Assembly (NCBI GenBank): GCA_002070905.1
Contig: MWEF01000006.1
Coordinates: 1,821 to 65,820 of the forward strand
Source of the DNA: Tenericutes bacterium ADurb.Bin087
GTDB lineage: Bacteria > Bacillota_I > Bacilli_A > RFN20 > CAG-826
DNA: 64,000 nucleotides
Direction of reading: 5' to 3'
The notes beneath the pieces were generated by a model, which worked only from the letters and a program-made list of their open reading frames with translations, made no database searches and was not told the origin of the DNA. A program made the translations under genes and the position numbers. Shown piece by piece: positions 1,413-12,412 of this stretch (positions within the stretch are counted from its first letter, which is position 1; each line of letters starts with the position of its first letter).

Positions 1413-2717
1413 ATGCGGACATTTATTCGAAAAAAAGACAAAAAAGCATTGCTGAAACATGTCAAAAAAATGCACCCTTATGACATTGTGGAAGCGCTAA
1501 ACGAACTCACTGCCGCTGAGCAGGAGCAATTTTACACATTATTGCCTGAAGACGAAATTGGGCGAATTATTGCTTTCATGGAGCCAAAAGAGGCTGCGGA
1601 CGTCATTGATGATTTTGATTTAGCTACACAAAAGACGATTATTGATACGCTTGATCTTGATGATGCTGCCGATCTTATTGTTCATCTTGATCATGAAACT
1701 GAATTAATTAATGGTTTAGAAAATGAACAAAGTATTACTGAAGTACTTAAATATACTGAAGAAAAAGTTGGTGCCCATATGTCTGATGCGTATATTAGCC
1801 TCACTTTAGGCACCGATATTAAAATCGCTACCAAAAATGTTATTCAAAAAGCGGGTGAAGTCGATGTCATTAATCATATCTTTATTGTTGATCATGAAAA
1901 TAATTATAAAGGGACGGTCGAATTACGCGATTTAGTACGCACTAAAGCACCAGCCTTAATTGATGATATTACTGAATTTACACCATTTGCTTTCGCCACT
2001 GATGATATCGAAGAAGCGGTTCATAAAATGAAAAATTATGGGTTACATGAGATGGCTGTTGTTAGTGGTGAATTACATTTAATCGGTATTCTTACAATTG
2101 ATGATGCGATTGAGATTTATCATGAAGAATCAGTCGATGACTTTGAAAAATTATCAGCACTTCCCGATACACGCACAAAAGGGGTTATTAAGTCCGCGGC
2201 GAAAAGATTACCATGGCTGCTCTTACTCTTAGTGTTATCAATGCCGATTGCAATTGCGACAAGTCGCTTTGAAGAAGTAATAACATCCGTCGCTGTTCTT
2301 GCCCTTTTTCAACCACTGATTCTGGACGCGGGTGGGGACGTTGCGAGTCAAACACTAGCGGTTACCTTAAGATTACTTACTAAAAATCCAAAGAAAGCAC
2401 TTAAGAACGGTGGGATAGAAATACTAACTGGGATTATTAACGGAATTGGTCTTGGCATTGTCGCGGGCATTGTCTCTTTCATTATTTCGAAAGTAATTGG
2501 CATTACGGAGCCATTTAATGTTGCACTTGTCGTCTTTATTTCGCTCGCGGTTACGGTTGCAACAGGGCCCATCTTTGGTTTATTTATCCCGCTTATTTTA
2601 GATAAGATGAAAATTGATCCAGCGGTTGCTTCTAGCCCGCTTATTACTACACTAATTGATATTACGAGTGTCGTTATTTATTTTGGGGTAGCGACATTAT
2701 TATTGGGGGTGATTTAA
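1413..2717 (+). CDS. mgtE: Mg2+ transporter MgtE (copy 1)
   Basis: N-domain, tandem CBS region and 5-TM C-terminus with DPAVASSPLITTLIDITSVVIYF. ATG at 1413 is preceded by AAGGAGGA. The ORF-track start at 1341 overlaps the riboswitch terminator. Confidence 0.9.
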   Translation: MRTFIRKKDKKALLKHVKKMHPYDIVEALNELTAAEQEQFYTLLPEDEIGRIIAFMEPKEAADVIDDFDLATQKTIIDTLDLDDAADLIVHLDHETELINGLENEQSITEVLKYTEEKVGAHMSDAYISLTLGTDIKIATKNVIQKAGEVDVINHIFIVDHENNYKGTVELRDLVRTKAPALIDDITEFTPFAFATDDIEEAVHKMKNYGLHEMAVVSGELHLIGILTIDDAIEIYHEESVDDFEKLSALPDTRTKGVIKSAAKRLPWLLLLLVLSMPIAIATSRFEEVITSVAVLALFQPLILDAGGDVASQTLAVTLRLLTKNPKKALKNGGIEILTGIINGIGLGIVAGIVSFIISKVIGITEPFNVALVVFISLAVTVATGPIFGLFIPLILDKMKIDPAVASSPLITTLIDITSVVIYFGVATLLLGVI

Positions 2718-4052
2718 ATGAAAGATTTAATGATTTTAAATGATGCCCACTTAAAGAAAACACTAGCGAAAATGCATCCCTATGACATTGCCGCGAAAAT
2801 GAAAGATGCCTCAAGTGATGCTCAAATGCGTTTAATTCGTTTAATGGCATTAAATAAAACAGTTGCAGTGTTTAGCGAATTACCAAGTGCAGTTTCCCGT
2901 CACTATTTTAGTTTATTGCCAGAAGCGCAAAAGAAACAATTTTTAGAGGCATTTGAAATGGATGATTTAAAAACATTCATCACGAGTTTTGAAGATGACT
3001 ATCAAGTCTATCTCTTGAGTTTATTAGCGCCAAGTAAACAAGTAACGCTTAAGGTCTTAATGAGTTATGATCAAGAAAAGATTGCGACAATTATGAGTAC
3101 AAACTTCGTCACAATTAAAGCAAATACGACGATTAAAGACACCACTGCACATATTATAAATAGTTCAAAATACAACGATTTTGTCGATGATATCTTTGTT
3201 ATTGATGAAAATGATGCCTTAATAGGAAGTGTGACTTTAAAAGATTTAATTAGTGCGCGCGCTGATGACTCACTTGATAGTATTACTTACACAATTAACA
3301 ATTATTTAACACTCAATGACTCACTTAATGAGGGTTATAAAAAGTTTGAAAACTATGCCAAAAATGTACTCCCAGTATTAGATGGAAACCGTCATATTAT
3401 TGGAATTGTCACTGCTGATGACGTGTTAGATATCATGGTGAGCGAACATGAAGAAGATATCCATAAAATGACAGGGGTTGGTGATTACAACGAATCATCA
3501 AATGCCTTTAAGCGCTCATTTCAAAGAATGCCATGGTTAGTTATTTCCGTATTACTAAACCTAGTCATCGCCGCACTTTTATCAGTATTTGAAAAAACAC
3601 TCGTCGAAGTGATCGCGCTTATTATGTTTCAACCAATGATTTTAGGGATGGCCGGAAACATTGGAACGCAATCAATTGCGGTAACGATTTTAAAATTAAA
3701 TCAAGATGAATTAACAGGCAAACACGATGAGAAAAAACATATTGGTAAAGAATTAAGCATTGGTTTATTAAATAGTGTCGCTGTTGGCCTTGGCGGATTT
3801 CTAATCTCCTTTGCGATATTAAGTTTCATCAATATGGGTTCACATAGCCCGTTATTACTCGCCCTTACAATTGGCGTTTCACTGATGGGTGGGATGTTTG
3901 TCTCCGCCGCTGCTGGTGTTTTCATTCCGATTATTTTAGAAAAAATGAAGGTTGATCCGGCAATTGCTAGTGGTCCAATTATCTCGACATTAAACGACTT
4001 ATTTGCCTTACTAATTTATTTTGGGATTGCAACTTTAATCTTCTTGTTATAA
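2718..4052 (+). CDS. mgtE: Mg2+ transporter MgtE (copy 2, diverged paralogue)
   Basis: Same architecture as copy 1, ending DPAIASGPIISTLNDLFALLIYF. Its start codon directly abuts the stop of copy 1 (TAA ATG). Confidence 0.85.
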   Translation: MKDLMILNDAHLKKTLAKMHPYDIAAKMKDASSDAQMRLIRLMALNKTVAVFSELPSAVSRHYFSLLPEAQKKQFLEAFEMDDLKTFITSFEDDYQVYLLSLLAPSKQVTLKVLMSYDQEKIATIMSTNFVTIKANTTIKDTTAHIINSSKYNDFVDDIFVIDENDALIGSVTLKDLISARADDSLDSITYTINNYLTLNDSLNEGYKKFENYAKNVLPVLDGNRHIIGIVTADDVLDIMVSEHEEDIHKMTGVGDYNESSNAFKRSFQRMPWLVISVLLNLVIAALLSVFEKTLVEVIALIMFQPMILGMAGNIGTQSIAVTILKLNQDELTGKHDEKKHIGKELSIGLLNSVAVGLGGFLISFAILSFINMGSHSPLLLALTIGVSLMGGMFVSAAAGVFIPIILEKMKVDPAIASGPIISTLNDLFALLIYFGIATLIFLL

Positions 4053-4231: not shown

Positions 4232-5293
4232 ATGAAGATAATCCATACAGCGGACATTCATATTGATTCAAAGATGAATCGCTATGGTGGTGATAAAACT
4301 GAGCGCCGCAAAAGAGAAATAAAAAGTGCTTTTTTTCGCTTAATTGATTATGGCGTTAATCACAAAATAAACGTTATTTTGATTGCGGGCGACTTATTTG
4401 ACGCTAAAGAGCTAAAACTCTCAACCTTACGTGAAGTCTTAACAAAAATCAACAGTGCCCCCGCAATTGATTTTATATATTTAACTGGTAACCATGATGA
4501 CCCCGCGGTTTTAAATCATGAAAAATTAGGCCCGCTACCCCAAAACCTTAAAATTGTCACAAGTGAAAATAATACGTTCGAGTATGATAACTTATGTATT
4601 AAAGCCTTTGATAACTATCACGGTGACAGCTATATCAAAAACTTAAATTTTGATCCAAATAAATACAACATCTTAATGCTCCATGGCACAGAAACTGAAA
4701 TTCCTTTTAACAAGTTAAAAGGTAAAAACATTGACTACTTAGCGCTTGGCGACATTCATATCCCTGATATTAGTGCAAAAGCGTTAGATGCACGTGGGAT
4801 ATATGGTTACTCAGGGGTTTTAGAGCCACGCGGTTTTGATGAACTTGGCGAACGCGGCTTTTTCGTTTTAGAAATTGAACAAAATCGACTACTTAAACGT
4901 GAATTTATTAAAAATAATAGTCGAACATACCACGTTATTAATGTCGATATCAGTGGTTTAAATAATCGGCTTGATATTGAAATAGCAATTAATAACGCGA
5001 CTAAAAATACTAAAAGTGATGACATCGTCCGCATAATGCTAACAGGAAAATATGATTATGAATTAGTGAAGGATAAAAATGCACTGCGTGAATATTTAGA
5101 AAGCAAGTTTTATTATGCTGAACTAAAAGATGAATCAAAATTAGACATTAGCACGATTGATTTTGAAAATGAAGTATCGCTGCGCGGCGAATTCTTCCGC
5201 TTAGTGCAAAGTTCTAACTATACATCAGAGGAAAAAGAGAAATTATTAGAGTTTGGGCTAGCTGCTTTAAAAGGAGGGAAAATTGAACTATGA
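4232..5293 (+). CDS. SbcD/YhaO-like metallophosphoesterase (DNA repair exonuclease subunit)
   Basis: Calcineurin-type motifs are present: HTADIH, AGDLFD, GNHD, MLHG and GDIH. The stop overlaps the start of the SbcC-like gene by 4 nt. Confidence 0.8.
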   Translation: MKIIHTADIHIDSKMNRYGGDKTERRKREIKSAFFRLIDYGVNHKINVILIAGDLFDAKELKLSTLREVLTKINSAPAIDFIYLTGNHDDPAVLNHEKLGPLPQNLKIVTSENNTFEYDNLCIKAFDNYHGDSYIKNLNFDPNKYNILMLHGTETEIPFNKLKGKNIDYLALGDIHIPDISAKALDARGIYGYSGVLEPRGFDELGERGFFVLEIEQNRLLKREFIKNNSRTYHVINVDISGLNNRLDIEIAINNATKNTKSDDIVRIMLTGKYDYELVKDKNALREYLESKFYYAELKDESKLDISTIDFENEVSLRGEFFRLVQSSNYTSEEKEKLLEFGLAALKGGKIEL

Positions 5294-7476
5294 GAATATT
5301 AGAAATTAATATTAATAGCTTTGGTAAATTTACCAATTACACCCTCAAATTTGAAAATAATCTCACGATTATTAATGAAGATAATAGTTTTGGTAAAACA
5401 ACAATCGCCCACTTCATCAAAGCAATGTTTTTTGGGATGAAAGCACCAAAAGGCAAAGGCAAAAGATTAAACTTACCGCGTTTTAAATATTTACCATGGG
5501 GCAAAACGACGTATGGTGGAAGTCTTACCTTTATTTATAAAGGACGTACATACACTGTGACACGAACGTTTGGTGAATCACTCACTAACGATAGTATTGT
5601 TGTTAAAGACCATGCGCGTAACGTAAATATTGATGAATTAAATGACACTAAAATTACACGTGATAACTTTGGTGATATTATCTTTGGAGTAAATAGCGAT
5701 AGCTTCGAAAAATTAAACTTCATCCAACAATTAGAAGTTTTATATAGCACTGATGATAAGATTCATGACGATATCAATTTAAAATTACGCGGCTTATTTG
5801 GTCATACCGCTGAAGATAGTGATTACGCTTCTGCTAATAACATTCTTGATGACTTTATTAAAGAACTTTCGCCTAGTTTACAACGTAAAAATTCTATTTA
5901 TAATAAAACTGACCGCGAACTTAATGCAATAAATAGTCTCGTCTTTGAAGCCGAAAAAGCCCAACAATTAATTAAAGAAAACACTAATGAATTAGACGCG
6001 TTAAGAAAACAAAAAAGTGAAAACGATAAAGTAAAAGCTAAACTTGATGCTGATTTAAAATTAATTACCAATAAAAAGTTACTAGAAAAGGATCTAAATG
6101 ATTATAACGAATTACTAGCAGAAGAAACTAACCTCAATTTACAAATTAAACAAAATAAAACAATCTTCGGTGATAATGATATTGCCGACATAAATTTAAC
6201 GTATTTAGAAGCATTAAGCAATGATTTGTCGGCAAAAGAGAATGATTTTAATAAATTTAAAGATAAAACACAAGCAGAAATTAATACCTTAAATGTATCC
6301 TTATCCAAAGCAGAAAGCACGGATGTTGAAAGCTTAGTTATTAAGCGCTCACATAAGGAAATTAGTGAAAAAATAACTAAATTAAATGCTGATGTTGATT
6401 TGCTCACAAGCAAAATAAAAAAATTTACGGTTATTGATATTTTGCTAAGTATCATTACGTTAGCAATCTATTTCTTTGTGGTAAATAGTAAAAACAATAA
6501 GCTTAAACAAGAAATCGCAAACTTAAATAAAGAAATAAGTGAACTACAACAAAGACTGCAAAACTATGAACAAGAATTAGTGACTATGGCACATGAAGAT
6601 AATGGCACTAATCTAAAACTTAAAATTGCCGAACTAACCGAAAACATCAAACAAAATCAATTAACATTCGAAACTTTGAAACTTCAAGTGTTTAATGTCT
6701 ATCAAAAATATGCTGTCACAATTAACTCCGTAAGCGATGTCCATGTTGCCTATTTCAAGCTAAAAAATCATTATGAACGCCATCTTGAACTAACGAAAAA
6801 ACTGAATGACACTAAAGCGAAACTACAAAATTATGATATTGAGAGAATTAATAAGGACCTTAAAGTTTTCGCCACCCTTGATGAAGAAAAAATTACAGAT
6901 AATAAAAATGATGTAGATGCCAAAAATGCGCAATTGATTCGAACAATCACAACCTTAGAACAACAAATTGACGCGAATGAAAATTTGGCTAGCAATCTTG
7001 AAAACTATAAACTTGACCGCGATGAATTGCGCGAAACGATGCATAATTATGATATGAATCGCACTCTATTAGAAGTAGCGCAAAAATTGTTAAAACACGC
7101 TAATCAACAACTCGCAGCACGGTATTTAACACCACTTGAAAATAATGTGAATGACTTAATTAAGAAACTTAAACTTGATGGTTATGCTGTCGCGTTTGAT
7201 GGCAATTCAGAAATAAAATTAAAAGATGAGAACTCTACCGAATATTATGACTTTGCTTATTATAGTGCTGGTAGTCAAGACACCATTTCTTTTTTAGTAA
7301 GAATTGCACTTATTAATCTTGTCTACCAAGATTTAAAACCGTTTATGATTTTAGATGATACATTCGTCAATTTTGATGATAAGAAGATTAAACTTGTGCG
7401 TCCACTACTCGAAAAACTAGCCGAAAATAACCAAATTATTTACTTTACATGTTCTAGTAGCAGAGCCCTTACATAA
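5290..7476 (+). CDS. SbcC/YhaN-like coiled-coil ATPase
   Basis: N-terminal P-loop (NSFGKTT), long K/E/N-rich coiled coil, C-terminal signature-like SAGSQD and Walker B FMILDD. Translationally coupled to the SbcD-like gene. Confidence 0.75.
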   Translation: MRILEININSFGKFTNYTLKFENNLTIINEDNSFGKTTIAHFIKAMFFGMKAPKGKGKRLNLPRFKYLPWGKTTYGGSLTFIYKGRTYTVTRTFGESLTNDSIVVKDHARNVNIDELNDTKITRDNFGDIIFGVNSDSFEKLNFIQQLEVLYSTDDKIHDDINLKLRGLFGHTAEDSDYASANNILDDFIKELSPSLQRKNSIYNKTDRELNAINSLVFEAEKAQQLIKENTNELDALRKQKSENDKVKAKLDADLKLITNKKLLEKDLNDYNELLAEETNLNLQIKQNKTIFGDNDIADINLTYLEALSNDLSAKENDFNKFKDKTQAEINTLNVSLSKAESTDVESLVIKRSHKEISEKITKLNADVDLLTSKIKKFTVIDILLSIITLAIYFFVVNSKNNKLKQEIANLNKEISELQQRLQNYEQELVTMAHEDNGTNLKLKIAELTENIKQNQLTFETLKLQVFNVYQKYAVTINSVSDVHVAYFKLKNHYERHLELTKKLNDTKAKLQNYDIERINKDLKVFATLDEEKITDNKNDVDAKNAQLIRTITTLEQQIDANENLASNLENYKLDRDELRETMHNYDMNRTLLEVAQKLLKHANQQLAARYLTPLENNVNDLIKKLKLDGYAVAFDGNSEIKLKDENSTEYYDFAYYSAGSQDTISFLVRIALINLVYQDLKPFMILDDTFVNFDDKKIKLVRPLLEKLAENNQIIYFTCSSSRALT

Positions 7477-7551: not shown

Positions 7552-8283
7552 ATGTCAGAAGCAAAAGCACCAAAAAAATTCCGCATTGATAAAACATTTA
7601 TCATCAAACTGATTATTTATGTTTTAGGCATTGTTCTTGTTGGGCTAGGTGTGCAAATTATTATTTATACGAATGTTGGAACAGCACCAATTGATGCGAT
7701 GAATTATTACTTAGCGCGCATCTATTTACAATTATTTAACAACAATGATTTTAGCACGCTAAAAACAACAATCGGTGTTGCTTCATTAGCGTTTGGAACG
7801 TTAACTGTCGTTGTTCTTTTCCTCATTACAAAAAATAAAGCACTAATCTTTACGTGGTTCAATATCTTTATTGTTTCACTAGTAATCTCCTTATGGGGTT
7901 TACTGTTTGATACTTTTGCGCCACTTGCAACTAGTTTCTTTATTACTGCACTAATTGCCCTTTTAGGGATAATCATTGTTGCTTTTGGTGTCTTTTTAGT
8001 GTTAGTAACTGAATTCCCAGCAGGACCACCCGAAGAAATAATGCGCCTGATTAATAAAAAGGCCAATAACTTACTTGTCGCTAAACTTTTAACCGAAACA
8101 TTTTATTTAGTGCTTGCTTTTATCGCGATGATTATCTCAATCACGATTATTGATGGTAATGGCCTAGAGTTTACCCAGGTTGGTGTATTCACTTTAATTA
8201 CGCTCGTTTTGACATCACTCTTTGTATCATTATTTGATTTCTTATATCGAAAAATCACAACGAAAAAAGTAGTGTCCGCATGA
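7552..8283 (+). CDS. polytopic membrane protein, YczE-like (uncertain family)
   Basis: 243 aa with about 6 hydrophobic helices. The GLGVQIIIYTNVGTAPIDA motif resembles YczE-type proteins (from memory). Confidence 0.45.
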   Translation: MSEAKAPKKFRIDKTFIIKLIIYVLGIVLVGLGVQIIIYTNVGTAPIDAMNYYLARIYLQLFNNNDFSTLKTTIGVASLAFGTLTVVVLFLITKNKALIFTWFNIFIVSLVISLWGLLFDTFAPLATSFFITALIALLGIIIVAFGVFLVLVTEFPAGPPEEIMRLINKKANNLLVAKLLTETFYLVLAFIAMIISITIIDGNGLEFTQVGVFTLITLVLTSLFVSLFDFLYRKITTKKVVSA

Positions 8284-8297
8284 AGCGGACTTTTTTC
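8274..8297 (+). terminator. intrinsic terminator overlapping the stop codon
   Basis: GTCCGC-atga-GCGGAC hairpin followed by TTTTTT. The TGA stop lies in the loop region. Confidence 0.75.
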
Positions 8298-8319
8298 TAG
8301 TAAAAGCCGCAGAAAAGCA

Positions 8320-8348
8320 TTGACTAAAAGTATTATATCTATTAAGAT
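8320..8348 (+). promoter_or_regulatory. sigma-A type promoter for the c-di-AMP riboswitch leader
   Basis: TTGACT (8320-8325), 17-nt spacer, TAAGAT (8343-8348). Confidence 0.5.
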
Positions 8349-8352
8349 ATAA

Positions 8353-8462
8353 GGGACTCCGAATCCTAAGAGTGGGGGACCCAATAGTTAATTGGGGTGA
8401 ATCAATTATAATTGTAAGGATATTCTTAATGTCCTGAACCCGACAGCTAACCTCATAGGAGT
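8353..8462 (+). promoter_or_regulatory. ydaO/yuaA-type c-di-AMP riboswitch
   Basis: Conserved blocks are present: GTGGGGGACCCA, GGGGTGAATC and CCTGAACCCGACAGCTAACCTCATAGGAGT. ACTCC (8356-8360) can close with GGAGT (8457-8461). It sits upstream of a cation transporter. Confidence 0.8.
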
Positions 8463-8501
8463 AATTAAGAACATTAATTATTTTTATGAGAGGAGAATAT
8501 T

Positions 8502-9848
8502 ATGGATGCAATTTTTGTGTTAATCCTGAAACTTGCGATCGTACTTTCCGTTGGATTTATTGGATCGCTTGTGGCCCGAAAACTTAAATTACCAAACGTG
8601 TCTGGTTATTTACTTTTCGGTTTATTACTTGGACCTTCACTTGGTCTTATTTTTAAGGGCTTCCCTGGCATTATCACTGTTGAAGATGGTGCTAATCTCA
8701 ACTTCATTAGCCAAATCGCCCTTGCGTTTATCGCCTTTTCCATCGGAGCGGAATTTAGTATCAAATCGATTAAAAAGGTCGGTAAACCAATTCTTATCAT
8801 GACAACGACCGAAGTATTAGGCGCGGTCTTAGTCGTGTTCTTTGCGATGTTATTTTTACCAAAACCACAAACGATTATGCCTGATGGTTATAGTCCCTTT
8901 AGTAACGCAAACATCGCCTTTGGCTTAATCTTAGCGTCAATGAGTGCGGCTACGGCACCAGCGGCAACGTTAATGGTTATTCGCCAATATCGTGCATTTG
9001 GTCCTGTCACACGTGCTATTTTACCAATTACCGCCCTTGATGATATTTACGGGATTGTCGTCTTTGGTTTCTTTATTTCCTTTGCACAAATCTTAGCTGC
9101 TACTGGTCCTTTACCACCAGTGTGGCTGATGATTTTAAAACCTTTTATTGAAGTGTTTGGTTCGGTCGCACTGGGGATGGTAATTGGTTTTCTTTTATCA
9201 ATCTTGGCGAATAAATTTGATAAAATTCGTGACGACCTGCAAGTCTTATCATTAATTGCGGTTTTTGGCACAATCGGATTAACATATTTAATTAACTATT
9301 TTTTAGAACCACATGGTTTATCATTTAGTCAACTATTATCTAATATTATGATTGGGTCAATGATCGCTAATATTGCTAAACGTCCCGGAAAAACATTTAA
9401 TGCGATTAACGACTTTGCCACTCCGTTTTATATTCTATTCTTCACCCTTGCTGGTGCAGGACTAGATTTAGCGATTTTAGGCACGACACCGCTCTTACTC
9501 TTAATTGCAGGTGTTTATATCTTAGCGCGTGGCTTTGGCAAGTGGCTTGGCATCTTTGTTGGTGCCAACATGGTCAAAGCCGAACCAACTGTCAAAAAGT
9601 ATTTAGGAATTGCCCTTTTACCGCAAGGTGGGGTCTCAATTGGCTTACTGGCGATTGTATTTACACAAATGGCACCGATGTATTCTGCTATTTCTACTGT
9701 TATAATGTTATCAGTACTAGTGTATGAAACAATGGGACCAGTGTTTGCCAAATTTGCAATTAGTAAAGCCGGCGAAATTGGAGGTCTTGATCGCCTTGAA
9801 CAATTATCAAGCCTCGAAGGCATTGAATTAACTGAGGAAGGAGCGTAA
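8502..9848 (+). CDS. cation:proton antiporter (CPA2 / Na_H exchanger family), no RCK domain
   Basis: 448 aa with about 12-13 TM helices and typical N-terminus GSLVARKLKLPNVSGYLLFGLLLGPS. The C-terminus is only a short acidic tail. Confidence 0.85.
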   Translation: MDAIFVLILKLAIVLSVGFIGSLVARKLKLPNVSGYLLFGLLLGPSLGLIFKGFPGIITVEDGANLNFISQIALAFIAFSIGAEFSIKSIKKVGKPILIMTTTEVLGAVLVVFFAMLFLPKPQTIMPDGYSPFSNANIAFGLILASMSAATAPAATLMVIRQYRAFGPVTRAILPITALDDIYGIVVFGFFISFAQILAATGPLPPVWLMILKPFIEVFGSVALGMVIGFLLSILANKFDKIRDDLQVLSLIAVFGTIGLTYLINYFLEPHGLSFSQLLSNIMIGSMIANIAKRPGKTFNAINDFATPFYILFFTLAGAGLDLAILGTTPLLLLIAGVYILARGFGKWLGIFVGANMVKAEPTVKKYLGIALLPQGGVSIGLLAIVFTQMAPMYSAISTVIMLSVLVYETMGPVFAKFAISKAGEIGGLDRLEQLSSLEGIELTEEGA

Positions 9849-9850
9849 TT

Positions 9851-10201
9851 ATGCAAATCTTATTTATTGTTTTAAATGACTTATCCTATTTAGATCGGAT
9901 CTTAGAAAAGTTTCTCGATCTCCATGTGCGTGGAGCGACAATTATTGATTCACAAGGAATGGCCGCGGCGATTATGCAAAATGAAGGCTTGCTTTCATTA
10001 CTTTCTGGCCCATTTGCGCGCTCTTTAGAAAACGACCAAAAAGGTTCAAAAACAATCTTTACTGTTATTCCTGAACCCGAAAAAGTTACGGAAGCTGTTA
10101 AAGCTGTCCAAGAAATCGTTGCTGGTTCAAAAAAACAAGTCGTGGGCTTTATGTTTACACTACCCGTCAGCGGTATTTATCCACTTAAAGCGAAAAAGTA
10201 A
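9851..10201 (+). CDS. PII-like (GlnB-fold) small signalling protein, function unknown
   Basis: 116 aa with a beta-alpha-beta-(long loop)-beta-alpha-beta pattern: ILFIVLND / YLDRILEKFLDLHV / ATIIDSQG / loop / KTIFTVIPE / KVTEAVKAVQEIV / GFMFTLPV. The SD (AAGGAG) lies inside the end of the antiporter gene, with a 2-nt gap. Confidence 0.5.
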   Translation: MQILFIVLNDLSYLDRILEKFLDLHVRGATIIDSQGMAAAIMQNEGLLSLLSGPFARSLENDQKGSKTIFTVIPEPEKVTEAVKAVQEIVAGSKKQVVGFMFTLPVSGIYPLKAKK

Positions 10202-10242
10202 AAGACGTCAATAACATCCGCAAATTGGCGATTATTGTATCG

Positions 10243-10251
10243 TGCTATAAT
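10243..10251 (+). promoter_or_regulatory. extended -10 promoter (TGcTATAAT) 10 nt before the ATG
   Basis: TG at 10243-10244, TATAAT at 10246-10251, ATG at 10262, no SD. Confidence 0.35.
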
Positions 10252-10261
10252 TAATATCATT

Positions 10262-11782
10262 ATGAGAAAACGCAAAGTAAACGAGTTTACCGAATATTTA
10301 AATCACTTAAATGATAGCGACGTTAAGGCTGTCAAAGCTTTCATGGTGAATTTTAAGCAACATATGAATTTAACGTTAAGTGAAGAGAAGAAATTACGGA
10401 AAGACTTAGAAGGGGCACTGATGTATTATAACGCGATTGGTGTCGCGGTCACTGAAGCTTTGCGCCGGCTTGATAATGAAAATCTTGGGGGATTTTATGC
10501 TCGTCCCCCACTTTTATATTATGCGCTTGATGATGCGGCGAAAATTTATCCCTTATCAATGAAACATGGTTTTCAAGCGGTGTTTCGTTTATCGGCAAAT
10601 CTATTTGACGAAGTTGTGCCACAGCTCTTGCAAATTGCTCTAACCTTTACGATTAAACGCTTTCCGCGCTTTGCCACTACCTTAAAAAAAGGCTTTTTCT
10701 GGCACTATTTAGATGCGAATAAACAACGCTATGGCATTGAAAAGGAAGAACATTTACCATGTCGCCCGATTAAAGTAGCGACAACTGGTTCGAAATCATT
10801 CCGTGTTTTATATTATAAAAATCGCGTTAGTGTTGAATTTTTCCATTGTCTCACTGATGGCCGTGGCGGATTAGTCTTTTTACAAACATTACTTGATACT
10901 TATCTACGGCTCTTTGGTGTTGAAGGGCAAACGCATCCAAGTATTTTAGATATTAACGCTACGCCACTACCGGAAGAAGATGCGAATGAATTTAAACGCA
11001 CTACTGTGACAAAACGGAGTGGTTTTAAAGAAAAACGCGCCCTGCAAATGAGTGGCAAAATCGAAAACATTCGCCCAACACAAATTTTACACTTTCGTCT
11101 TGACGCTACTGACTTATACAAGGTTGCCAAGCGTTATGGTGTGACAATTACGGCTTATATTCTTGGATTAATCCTGTTAGCAAGTCGCTTTGCTACGGAT
11201 GCAAAAGATGGTGATATTGCCATCCAAGTCCCTGTTGATTTACGCAAATATTATCCGTCAAGCACACTCGCTAATTTCTCGCTTTATGGTGGTATCCGTA
11301 TGCCGATTACCGATATTACAACGATGGAAGAACTTTTACCGCTTGTTAAAGATCAACTTGCAATCGTTACAAGTTATGAAAAAATGAGTGAAATGATGTA
11401 TTCCGCGCACCGTATGAATAAAGATGTGCGTGGTTTCCCACTTTTCTTAAAAAATCCGATTGCTAAACTAGCTTATGGCATTATGGGCGAAGCAATATTT
11501 ACAACAACGTTTAGTAATTTAGGGATTATTAGTGCGCCAGATCACTTCAATGACTACATTGAAAGTTATGACTTCGTGCTTGGTCCACCCGAAGTTAATC
11601 GCGCTGCTACGACGCTAGTGACATATAACAATATTGCCACATTAACGATTACAAAAAGTACGAAAGATCCATCTTTTGAAGAAGAAATATATCGCCTATT
11701 AGTTAAGGATGGTTTAGCAATAAATATTGAAGGGAGTGCTGTCTATGAACGTAAAAGTCGTGTATCCCGCGAAAAAGATTAA
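10262..11782 (+). CDS. HxxxD-motif acyltransferase (condensation / alcohol-acetyltransferase-like superfamily)
   Basis: FHCLTDGRGG matches the HxxxDG catalytic motif of condensation/WS-DGAT/AATase-type enzymes. About 500 aa and soluble. Start taken as the ATG at 10262 (the ORF-track TTG at 10235 is also possible). Confidence 0.55.
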   Translation: MRKRKVNEFTEYLNHLNDSDVKAVKAFMVNFKQHMNLTLSEEKKLRKDLEGALMYYNAIGVAVTEALRRLDNENLGGFYARPPLLYYALDDAAKIYPLSMKHGFQAVFRLSANLFDEVVPQLLQIALTFTIKRFPRFATTLKKGFFWHYLDANKQRYGIEKEEHLPCRPIKVATTGSKSFRVLYYKNRVSVEFFHCLTDGRGGLVFLQTLLDTYLRLFGVEGQTHPSILDINATPLPEEDANEFKRTTVTKRSGFKEKRALQMSGKIENIRPTQILHFRLDATDLYKVAKRYGVTITAYILGLILLASRFATDAKDGDIAIQVPVDLRKYYPSSTLANFSLYGGIRMPITDITTMEELLPLVKDQLAIVTSYEKMSEMMYSAHRMNKDVRGFPLFLKNPIAKLAYGIMGEAIFTTTFSNLGIISAPDHFNDYIESYDFVLGPPEVNRAATTLVTYNNIATLTITKSTKDPSFEEEIYRLLVKDGLAINIEGSAVYERKSRVSREKD

Positions 11783-12320
11783 ACATGATATTCGTCGTGC
11801 CGCTATTTACTGGGCCAAGCCTGCCTTCATTTTGGCCGCAGTCATAAGTGCTATCGTTAATTACTTAGTGAAAGGCTCTGCTTGGAGTGTCATCGTTATT
11901 TGGAGTTTGTGGATGATTTGGTCATTTGTGTTTACCCCAACCCTCATTGAACATAATCGGACGAGTATTGCTGTTAAATCTTCAATTCATGTAGCTATTC
12001 TCGTCGTCATTATTTATATGATTTATCCTAATTGGCCTGGTATTGAAGTTGCATCTCTTGTTGTTGTTGGTGGTTTAATCTTAACGGCAATATTATTTTT
12101 CAGTAACGTTTCGCGGCAAAAACAAAATGTGTTCCCACTTTTAATCTTTATTATTATTTCAATAATATTTAGTGTCGTCGCCTTTGTCTTACGTGGTCAA
12201 GAACCGCTTGGCTGGGCGATGATTGTTTCCATCAGTGTCGCACTCGCTATCTTTTTAAGTACAGCCATTATTTTACGAATTAACTTTTTTCGTGAACTTA
12301 AAAAGCGATTTATGTTATAG
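11745..12320 (+). CDS. small polytopic membrane protein, unknown function
   Basis: About 190 aa with about 6 TM helices. ATG at 11745 follows GAAGGGAG and overlaps the end of the acyltransferase gene by 38 nt. Confidence 0.55.
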   Translation: MNVKVVYPAKKIKHDIRRAAIYWAKPAFILAAVISAIVNYLVKGSAWSVIVIWSLWMIWSFVFTPTLIEHNRTSIAVKSSIHVAILVVIIYMIYPNWPGIEVASLVVVGGLILTAILFFSNVSRQKQNVFPLLIFIIISIIFSVVAFVLRGQEPLGWAMIVSISVALAIFLSTAIILRINFFRELKKRFML

Positions 12321-12338: not shown

Positions 12339-12412
12339 GCGGCTGTAGTTTAGTGGTAGAACTTTAGCTTCCCAAGCTAACCGTGCGGGTTCGATTCCCG
12401 TCAGCCGCTCCA
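12339..12412 (+). tRNA. tRNA-Gly (anticodon CCC)
   Basis: 74-nt cloverleaf with acceptor GCGGCTG/CAGCCGC, anticodon arm TTAGC-TTCCCAA-GCTAA, T-loop TTCGATT and an encoded CCA. Confidence 0.9.

Follow-up and report, generated by a model that had tools for sequence, protein, structure and literature searches.

A c-di-AMP riboswitch-led operon that probably joins a NapA-like antiporter to a dedicated PII-like regulator

The stretch of DNA analysed here, 64,000 nt of contig MWEF01000006.1 of Tenericutes bacterium ADurb.Bin087 (hereafter the window, to whose full length all coordinates refer; G+C 36%), carries on its plus strand, in the region 8274-10201, a leader of the cyclic di-AMP (c-di-AMP) riboswitch class followed by a gene for a NapA-like cation/proton antiporter of 448 residues (8502..9848, +; ATG at 8502, TAA at 9846-9848) and a gene for a PII-like protein of 116 residues (9851..10201, +). 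The latter protein is 100% identical, by database match, to a hypothetical protein of "Tenericutes bacterium ADurb.Bin087". In our preferred reading, to which we assign a probability of about 65%, promoter, riboswitch, antiporter gene and PII-like gene make up a single transcription unit, i.e., a riboswitch-led operon of a NapA-like antiporter and its dedicated PII-like regulator. Few signal integrators are as widespread as the PII proteins, but only two of their partnerships with transporters are, to our knowledge, understood, those for ammonium (GlnK-AmtB) and bicarbonate (SbtB-SbtA).

The reading is carried above all by the company that the small gene keeps. Two sets of loci were compared, one from genomes, with each species represented by a single genome (80 loci, from Acholeplasma, Paracholeplasma, Izemoplasmatales and metagenome-assembled genomes labelled 'Bacilli') and one from metagenomes (80 loci of a Clostridia-type branch, ~35-45% identical, retrieved with a 12-sequence Clostridia-type alignment, a 30-sequence alignment of distant relatives having proved too diverse). 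Linkage to CPA2-type cation/proton antiporter (CPA) genes in other genomes, which the first-pass annotation of this DNA had set beforehand as a point on which its proposal could fail, held strongly in both. An antiporter homologue lies directly upstream of the small gene in 78/80 loci of the genome set, and the other two begin within ~100 nt of the small gene, with no upstream DNA. The gap between the two genes is 1 nt in 26 and 2 nt in 14 of these 78 loci and at most 34 nt, a GGAG-type Shine-Dalgarno (SD) sequence stands at the same position 5' of the small gene in essentially all of them, and flanking genes are conserved only among the five closest relatives. In the metagenome set, a CPA gene on the same strand is directly adjacent in 69/80 loci, with the antiporter first in 48 and the PII-like gene first in 21, and two further loci have the order PII-PII-CPA (L107, 790-1573; L108, 849-1631), giving a total of 71/80; about four loci are uninformative on this point. 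Taken together, about 170 related loci from several bacterial groups were sampled, and most of them have such an antiporter gene next to the small one. Because the pairing survives inversion of the gene order and spans Acholeplasmatales, Clostridia/Tissierellia and Synergistota, it provides strong comparative evidence for a specific functional partnership.

The family to which the small protein belongs is a large one. An exhaustive profile search gave 508 PII-like clusters at 50% identity (E <= 1e-3), and a word-indexed search gave more than 1000 at 90% identity, with members in Tissierella, Clostridium, Alkaliphilus, Anaerovirgula, Anaerosalibacter and Aminobacterium, all of them named either 'hypothetical' or 'nitrogen regulatory protein P-II'. 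The small gene stands beside a Na_H_Exchanger gene of 388-404 residues, in both orders, in Anaerosalibacter, Tissierella pigra, Aminobacterium, Alkaliphilus and several metagenome contigs. Alkaliphilus serpentinus has a tandem arrangement (L091, 2291-6214) of a 114-residue protein, a 402-residue CPA, a 119-residue PII-like protein, a 116-residue protein and a 388-residue CPA. At one locus (L037, ~1600-3700), an IS21-type element on the minus strand, with IstB_IS21, a Mu transposase C-terminal domain and a helix-turn-helix open reading frame, splits the antiporter gene, and the riboswitch and the PII-like gene are intact.

That the small protein has the PII (GlnB) fold, as the first-pass annotation had proposed, is borne out by structure prediction. 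An AlphaFold2 model made with 39 homologues (predicted local distance difference test, pLDDT, 80.3) has the order β-α-β-[long loop]-β-α-β (β1 2-8, α1 11-23, β2 30-34, β3 66-73, α2 76-90, β4 99-105), with a T-loop-like insert of ~30 residues at 35-65 that is modelled at lower confidence and predicted to hold two short helices. In a Foldseek comparison with the PDB, each of the best 50 matches is a canonical PII protein (TT1020, GlnZ, GlnK, cyanobacterial PII), with a best E of 4e-6, a probability of 1.0 and template modelling (TM) scores, normalised to the target, of 0.56-0.84. A profile built from 30 distant relatives also finds PII chains, with matches over the full length (best E 3e-4) that align GATIxDSxGM with GMTVxEVKGFG and GIxFTxPV with GDGKIFVxPV. 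Against the Pfam P-II family (PF00543), the window protein scores 21.3 bits (E 3.4e-4; cut-off 25) and its relatives 17.4-33.7 bits, some of them above the cut-off and many with a precomputed PF00543 hit; in NCBIfam, no PII or other model matches the 116-residue protein.

Within the PII superfamily the protein stands apart. It keeps the β2 GxT motif and a Lys at the position equivalent to K58 (K67), and its positions aligned to the canonical ligand residues read G-M-A-x-x, G-[F/I]-x-F (versus GDGKIF) and P-V-S-G-I-Y, with no Arg. Invariant in the family are the GAT of β2, G36/M37 at the base of the insert, G46/G53/F55 within it, S66/K67 in β3, and G99-F102, P105, V106 and G108 in β4 and the C-terminus (GFMF..PV.G). 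Pfam CdAMP_rec gives no hit to the protein at E <= 0.1, and the PstA chains 4wk1 and 4d3g, compared with the family profile, get no better than E 0.5 and contain no stretch that passes alone. The T-loop is long and the B-loop short, the opposite of PstA, in which the T-loop is short and the B-loop long. By its sequence and modelled fold, the small protein is a distinct branch of the PII superfamily, neither GlnB/GlnK nor PstA/DarA, as the first-pass annotation had supposed. Two long proteins, P0208 (2855 residues) and P0214 (1384 residues), have 7 and 5 separate stretches that match the PII-like profile, and P0155 (422 residues) has a C-terminal PII-like module behind an N-terminus that is PrmC/HemK-like by eye only; these could be real fusions or artefacts of gene calling. 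Two apparent antiporter/PII fusions, P0164 and P0168, seem to be gene calls that are frameshifted or chimeric, and no argument here draws on them.

The partner encoded upstream matches Pfam Na_H_Exchanger (PF00999) with 98.5 bits over residues 19-407 of 448, and the Pfam scan found neither an RCK/KTN domain (TrkA_N/TrkA_C) nor any other, leaving a C-terminal tail of 41 residues. The best 120 homologues listed are ~445 residues long, have PF00999 only, all lack RCK, and appear in the databases as 'cation:proton antiporter' or 'KefB membrane component'. Single-sequence searches of the antiporter and of the small protein against PDB sequences gave nothing useful, and profiles were needed: a profile of 15 family members matches Thermus thermophilus NapA over the full length (E 1.3e-14), with D180/D181 aligned to NapA D156/D157 and K347 to K305. 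An AlphaFold2 model of the antiporter (pLDDT 78.3, predicted TM-score 0.77) has NapA (5bz2) as its best Foldseek match, followed by NhaP, NHA2, SOS1 and KefC, with TM-scores of 0.6-0.7. Since the NCBIfam CPA2 model TIGR00932 (2a37) gives 41.5 bits, below its trusted cut-off of 238.3, the protein is called CPA2-type and NapA-like by motif and fold.

The motif itself is informative. In the eight-position CPA motif, CPA2 is marked by a residue other than Glu at position 5 and by Lys, not Arg, at position 8, and the electrogenic type by Asp-Asp at positions 6-7; position 4 is non-polar in Na+-selective CPA2 clades, and Kef-like K+ carriers have L-S-S-T (PMC6181914). The antiporter has A150-T151-A152-P153, I176, D180-D181 and K347, i.e., the CPA2 electrogenic pattern (I176, D180, D181, K347) with a non-polar position 4 (P153). 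Judged by sequence and model, it is a NapA-like, CPA2-type carrier of the electrogenic type without an RCK domain, and by the rule for position 4 it probably exchanges Na+ (Li+) for H+; the first-pass annotation had likewise called it a CPA2 antiporter lacking RCK. The further suggestion that the small protein replaces an RCK domain is an analogy only, given that the best 120 homologues listed all lack RCK and yield no evidence of a swap.

The leader was matched by the full-length Rfam model for the c-di-AMP (ydaO-class) riboswitch (RF00379, model positions 1-134) at 8347..8476 (+) with 88.1 bits, against a gathering score of 38, and E 3.2e-19. Its P1 helix pairs CUCC (8357-8360) with GGAG (8458-8461), and the ydaO-class blocks GGGGGACCCA (8374-8383), GGGGTGAATC (8394-8403) and CCCGACAGCTAACCTCATAGG (8439-8459), on which the first-pass annotation had based the same assignment, are where it had placed them. 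The pseudoknot of the class is present, with the hairpin loop CUUAAU (8425..8430, +) as its 5' strand and AUUAAG (8464..8469, +), invariant in 12 aligned leaders, as its 3' strand, the latter lying 3' of the P1 strand GGAG beyond a spacer UAA that ends at 8463. Across 59 leaders the loop co-varies with the 3' tail in five classes (CUUAAU/AUUAAG, CUUGGU/ACCAAG, CUUUAAG/CUUAAAG, CUUUAG/CUAAAG and GCUUAG/UUAAGC), and the mean contiguous loop-tail complementarity is 6.5 nt, compared with 4.7 in shuffled tails and 5.0 in the best of 200 shuffles. RNAalifold run on 12 of the aptamers did not recover the known ydaO fold. On the strength of the model score together with the loop/tail co-variation, the window leader is, as far as sequence can tell, a bona fide c-di-AMP riboswitch aptamer and is predicted to bind the ligand.

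Riboswitch calls at the other loci were made with the Rfam model plus a conserved-block marker. The conserved 3'-aptamer block stands just 5' of the antiporter ATG in 45 loci of the genome set plus the window; Rfam found RF00379 in 11/11 block-positive loci tested and nothing in 12/12 block-negative loci tested, including those of A. laidlawii, A. oculi and A. granularum. Twelve loci of the metagenome set, all antiporter-first, have RF00379 5' of the antiporter. The riboswitch thus accompanies 58/108 antiporter-first and 0/27 PII-first operons, or 58 of the 135 operons of known status. When the PII-like proteins are ordered by neighbour-joining, the riboswitch positives fall in one contiguous region with negatives nested within it, and this suggests either an old association with losses or repeated gains. 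Because the pair is far more widespread than the riboswitch, the gene pair is, on this sequence comparison, the primary unit and the riboswitch a recurrent, lineage-restricted addition. Other riboswitch classes were encountered farther along some contigs: a c-di-GMP-I (cyclic di-GMP) riboswitch (64.1 bits) in L013, an uncultured Acholeplasmatales contig, at 7003-7077 (+), 2.6 kb downstream of the PII-like gene, and a lysine riboswitch aptamer downstream of the PII-like gene in L169 (2904-4932) and in L152 and L156 (4056-4513), followed in L169 and L156 by group II intron domains.

The direction of the switch is most easily read in the relatives. In ~32/46 Acholeplasma-type leaders, the pseudoknot strand runs directly into a G-C-containing stem plus U6-8, typically AUUAAG-CGUAUAA-loop-UUAUGCG-UUUUUUU, and a second, low-GC metagenome clade follows the same plan (ACCAAG-CG...CGC-UUUUUU). 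An aptamer followed by a terminator has been found experimentally to terminate on c-di-AMP at kdp of B. thuringiensis (PMC6488665) and, with the same architecture, in Dehalobacter (PMC9337991), and the members of the class are regarded as off-switches (PMC9960051). Because that architecture terminates on c-di-AMP elsewhere, we infer by analogy that the terminator-type members of the operon family are under OFF control by transcription termination. A longer pseudoknot, formed by AUAC..UUAAU with AUUAAG-CG-UAU, was considered and set aside, as it is not kept in leaders with a different hairpin stem.

The window leader differs from this plan. Where its relatives carry a G-C-containing intrinsic terminator, it has an AU-only hairpin followed by U5 (8462..8485, +), made of UAAUUAA, the loop GAACA and UUAAUUA (8462-8480; core AATTAA/TTAATT at 8463-8468/8474-8479), with the U-run at 8481-8485. 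The full stem has seven pairs, all A-U, its stability comes to -5.4 kcal/mol only when G-U pairing to the U-run is included, and it was not called in a terminator scan of the window. Its 5' arm (8462-8468) overlaps the pseudoknot strand. CTCATA (8452-8457) is also complementary to TATGAG (8485-8490), and RNAfold joins the two into a 17-bp extended hairpin (8452-8468/8474-8490) that competes with the P1 3' strand and the aptamer 3' helix. It ends beside, not over, the SD core of the antiporter gene (8491-8495), which is free in both states of the leader. The first-pass annotation had named the AU hairpin, the T-run and the CTCATA/TATGAG pairing as candidate expression platforms; all are present as described, and it had missed the overlap with the pseudoknot strand. 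The AU-hairpin design is found again in L001, L059, L023, L037, L015 and L026, and independently in L113 (69-240) and L115 (205-375), of a metagenome lineage with 41% G+C, in which the aptamer is followed by GCAA-CGAAAA-UUGC-UUUU and then an SD; here too the hairpin is made of the pseudoknot strand and a second copy of the loop lying farther downstream, as in the window, with a different sequence. In the window genome, the terminator appears to have degenerated into an AU hairpin in competition with the pseudoknot and, because the hairpin's 5' arm is shared with the pseudoknot strand, the strength and sign of control there are uncertain.

By analogy with known systems, the PII-like protein would be the dedicated cytoplasmic partner of the antiporter, most likely a trimeric regulator, whose long, conserved T-loop-like insert would touch the carrier on its cytoplasmic side, at the face or the funnel, with gating by a ligand in the inter-subunit cleft. 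GlnK acts in this way on AmtB, and SbtB on SbtA. In most of the riboswitch lineages, c-di-AMP would turn the operon off by termination, and the antiporter would be made when c-di-AMP is low, i.e., under osmotic or salt stress or K+ shortage, which would fit Na+ (Li+) extrusion rather than K+ efflux and would parallel the way in which this riboswitch controls K+ importers. For the ligand of the PII-like protein, the default guess is an adenine nucleotide, with c-di-AMP as one candidate only; if c-di-AMP were bound, coherence would point to inhibition of the carrier, as for KtrA and KimA, not to activation of the RCK_C type seen in K+ exporters. We tentatively raise, as a bolder proposal in which we place little trust, that this could be a third PII-transporter partnership, and the first to gate a secondary-active cation/proton antiporter, with the trimer closing a dimeric CPA2 carrier on c-di-AMP or another adenine nucleotide. 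Were it true, the PII-like protein would take the role that RCK domains have elsewhere and, where the riboswitch is present, c-di-AMP would control both the synthesis and the activity of the same Na+/H+ exchanger.

Several points weigh against the reading of a c-di-AMP-repressed operon for a Na+ antiporter and its dedicated regulator. PII proteins are trimers and CPA antiporters dimers, AmtB and SbtA being trimers, and for that reason the docking geometry of GlnK and SbtB is not directly transferable. The canonical PII residues for the ATP phosphates and 2-oxoglutarate (G37, R38, Q39, G87, K90, R101 and R103) are not kept, which makes nucleotide binding by the PII-like protein putative. The metagenome set has five or six clear exceptions to the pairing, adjoining PTS EIIA-2 (phosphotransferase system) and HisS genes, AAA/HD genes or an array of clustered regularly interspaced short palindromic repeats (CRISPR), and the minority contexts also include a ClC channel and a CN-hydrolase. 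The rule for motif position 4 is a rule of thumb and not an assay, no antiterminator pairing with the 5' arm of the terminator was found in the terminator-type leaders by eye or with RNAfold, and on paper the window leader, its hairpin and pseudoknot being mutually exclusive, reads as an ON switch. The last point can be developed into a different account of the window riboswitch, as an ON switch or one that is barely active, in which only an empty aptamer would allow the AU hairpin, with its 17-bp extension, to form, and c-di-AMP would free the region 5' of the SD and block the hairpin-plus-U-run. The strands that the two hairpins take from the pseudoknot, P1 and the aptamer 3' helix speak for it, as does the recurrence of the design in six other loci and, independently, in L113/L115. 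We consider it unlikely, since all c-di-AMP riboswitches tested to date are OFF switches (PMC9960051, PMC6488665, PMC9337991), ordinary terminators occur in close relatives of the same operon, the hairpin of 7 A-U pairs is very weak, and the SD core is unsequestered in either state. Simple two-hairpin reasoning may in any case not apply, because a review counts ydaO among the riboswitches that, on binding the ligand, recruit their expression platform by docking (PMC10907184).

What the small protein does can also be read in other ways than as the regulator we prefer. It might be a c-di-AMP receptor standing in for RCK_C, giving double c-di-AMP control in which the riboswitch sets synthesis and the gate activity, a situation with precedents in KtrAB and KimA, where c-di-AMP controls both. 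Two other PII-like families, PstA/DarA and SbtB, bind c-di-AMP (PMC4475381, PMC8654305), the riboswitch-antiporter-PII arrangement occurs in 58 operons from two divergent clades, and the RCK module, through which other CPA2 systems bind c-di-AMP, is missing from the antiporter; the likeness to PstA/DarA, however, is one of fold only, as the CdAMP_rec and PstA results above indicate, SbtB is not named in the PDB profile matches listed, and the riboswitch is absent from 50 antiporter-first and 27/27 PII-first operons, from which it follows that the pair is independent of RNA-level c-di-AMP signalling. On balance we hold this role to be doubtful. That the protein is instead a classical PII, sensing energy or nitrogen through ATP/ADP and 2-oxoglutarate and gating a CPA2 carrier that moves NH4+ or K+, in the manner of GlnK/AmtB and of the CPA2 carriers reported to efflux ammonium, strikes us as improbable. 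Among solved structures the profile is closest to GlnB/GlnK, the GxT motif and K67 are kept, and relatives are annotated as 'nitrogen regulatory protein P-II' in some sources, but the seven ligand residues just listed are replaced, the Pfam score is below its cut-off with no NCBIfam PII match, the conserved neighbourhood is without nitrogen-metabolism genes, and the riboswitch link indicates osmotic or cation control. The loss of those residues, and the occurrence of the GlnB-like fold in non-signalling proteins such as CutA (PMC12685090), would suit a protein that senses nothing, i.e., a structural or assembly subunit, a CutA-type metal- or cation-binding protein, or a product of mere co-transcription. 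Such a role is very improbable in view of the conservation at PII ligand and partner sites (the β2 GAT, G36/M37, G46/G53/F55, GFMF..PV.G) and of a pairing that survives gene-order inversion across several bacterial groups. A KhtS-like modulator of a KhtU-type antiporter was considered as well and finds no support, there being no relative so named and no NCBIfam match.

Some of the minority neighbourhoods are worth recording in their own right. A sub-branch of PII-like genes lies between a PTS EIIA-2 (PtsN-like) gene and hisS (L136, 457-1302; L137, 725-1714; L128, 2-962). EIIA-Ntr proteins regulate K+ transport in proteobacteria, and this neighbourhood may be another cation-related context. In L084 (1-1130), a PII-like relative lies between what by eye is a fragment of a TetR-like gene and a gene for a ClC-type channel (Voltage_CLC, 37.8 bits), and some members of the family may partner other ion transporters. 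In L166 (39-2267) and L167 (38-2267), the PII-like gene is directly 3' of a CRISPR array of more than 30 repeats (CRISPR-DR2), with no antiporter neighbour and with a FeoB gene downstream.

To return to the window, the 5' boundary of the operon is set by the intrinsic terminator of an upstream gene for a 243-residue membrane protein (8274..8296, +), with a stem GTCCGC/GCGGAC (8274-8290) of 5 G-C pairs followed by TTTTTT. Past it, and just 5' of the aptamer, is a candidate sigma-70-type promoter (8320..8348, +; TTGACT at 8320-8325, a 17-nt spacer, TAAGAT at 8343-8348). The first-pass annotation had called it good: it has 9/12 consensus positions and is well positioned, whereas its score is commonplace in AT-rich DNA, with 10 such sites against 6.8 +/- 2.5 expected in shuffles. 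The antiporter gene has an SD, AGGAG (8491..8495, +), 6 nt 5' of its ATG as read from the sequence. The SD of the small gene, GAGGAAGGAG (9834..9843, +), lies within the 3' end of the antiporter gene, and the small gene's ATG follows the antiporter stop by 2 nt, an arrangement that the earlier annotation had described correctly; the two genes are probably tightly, translationally coupled.

Farther upstream on the same strand, an M-box (Mg2+) riboswitch (1170-1335, +; 148.7 bits) is followed by two tandem mgtE genes (1341-2717 and 2718-4052, +), each with MgtE_N, CBS and MgtE domains. A Metallophos gene (4232-5293, +) extends into the beginning of a gene for a 728-residue AAA_23/AAA_27 coiled-coil ATPase (5290-7476), and this gene pair (4232-7476) looks like an SbcCD-type nuclease pair. 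Downstream of the operon (10235-12320, +), an open reading frame of 515 residues, which matches PapA_C (acyltransferase/condensation-like) weakly, runs into the 5' end of a gene for a 197-residue DUF6320 membrane protein, a pair kept only in the closest relatives (L001-L004, L059), and a transfer RNA gene is next at 12339-12409. No diadenylate cyclase motif RHR[AS][AG] was found in the window, and 64 kb are too few to judge the genome.

The module is apparently undescribed: a literature search (full text, covering few subscription journals) found no paper on a PII-like or GlnB-like protein with an antiporter, CPA2 or Kef, nor on ydaO with P-II. Regulation of a co-encoded transporter by a PII-type protein was already known, and the module extends this paradigm and does not found a new one. 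What is new is a branch of PII-like proteins devoted to CPA2 antiporters without RCK, in many cases with a c-di-AMP riboswitch in control; c-di-AMP riboswitches 5' of transporters are themselves well known (PMC3766115). As a large branch found almost always beside an RCK-less NapA-like antiporter, it offers a candidate post-translational regulator of such carriers, including the antiporters of the wall-less Acholeplasma and relatives, organisms that depend critically on osmotic control. Through its recurrent c-di-AMP riboswitch, the module is linked to the osmotic/cation regulon and becomes a natural test of c-di-AMP acting at the RNA and protein levels on a cation exporter. Recognition of the branch would also correct a database misannotation that is propagating, whether as 'hypothetical' or, misleadingly, as 'nitrogen regulatory protein P-II'.

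Set beside the systems it most resembles, the operon is a mixture of the familiar and the distinct. With ydaO/kimA, ktrA and kdp of Bacillota, its leader shares the full-length RF00379 aptamer with pseudoknot, the aptamer-then-terminator order in most relatives, and an ion transporter as the regulated gene, like other members of the regulon (PMC3766115, PMC6488665); it differs in controlling a CPA2-type antiporter plus a PII-like protein rather than a K+ importer and, in the window, in having an AU hairpin over the pseudoknot strand in place of the terminator. The antiporter has in T. thermophilus NapA its best full-length profile and fold match, with the DD pair in transmembrane helix (TM) 5 and the Lys in TM10, yet identity is ~20%, the unwound TM4 carries ATAP where NapA has ATSV, residues 118-134 form an additional loop, and Acholeplasma-type antiporters have a conserved acidic C-terminal tail, GLDRLE..SS.EG. 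KefC, CpaA of S. aureus and KhtTU of B. subtilis are RCK-regulated CPA2 systems, and the likeness to them lies in a CPA2-type carrier with c-di-AMP-related control and a cytoplasmic regulatory module, separate or fused; here, however, the antiporter and its best 120 homologues listed are without RCK/KTN, the accessory protein has a PII fold instead of the Rossmann-type RCK fold, and the CPA motif (DD, K, non-polar position 4) is more NapA-like than Kef-like. PstA/DarA is also a small protein of GlnB-like fold from Bacillota, with a possible link to c-di-AMP signalling in common, but there is no significant sequence match and PstA has no linkage to an antiporter gene. The closest parallels are GlnK-AmtB and SbtB-SbtA, in which, as here, a small PII-fold protein with a long T-loop-like insert, and with conservation in the inter-subunit cleft region and the loop, is encoded beside a membrane transporter in a tight operon. 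Unlike GlnK and SbtB, the protein lacks the canonical nucleotide and 2-oxoglutarate residues and has a ~30-residue insert with predicted helical segments, and its partner is a CPA2-type antiporter, expected to be a dimer, rather than a trimeric channel or symporter.

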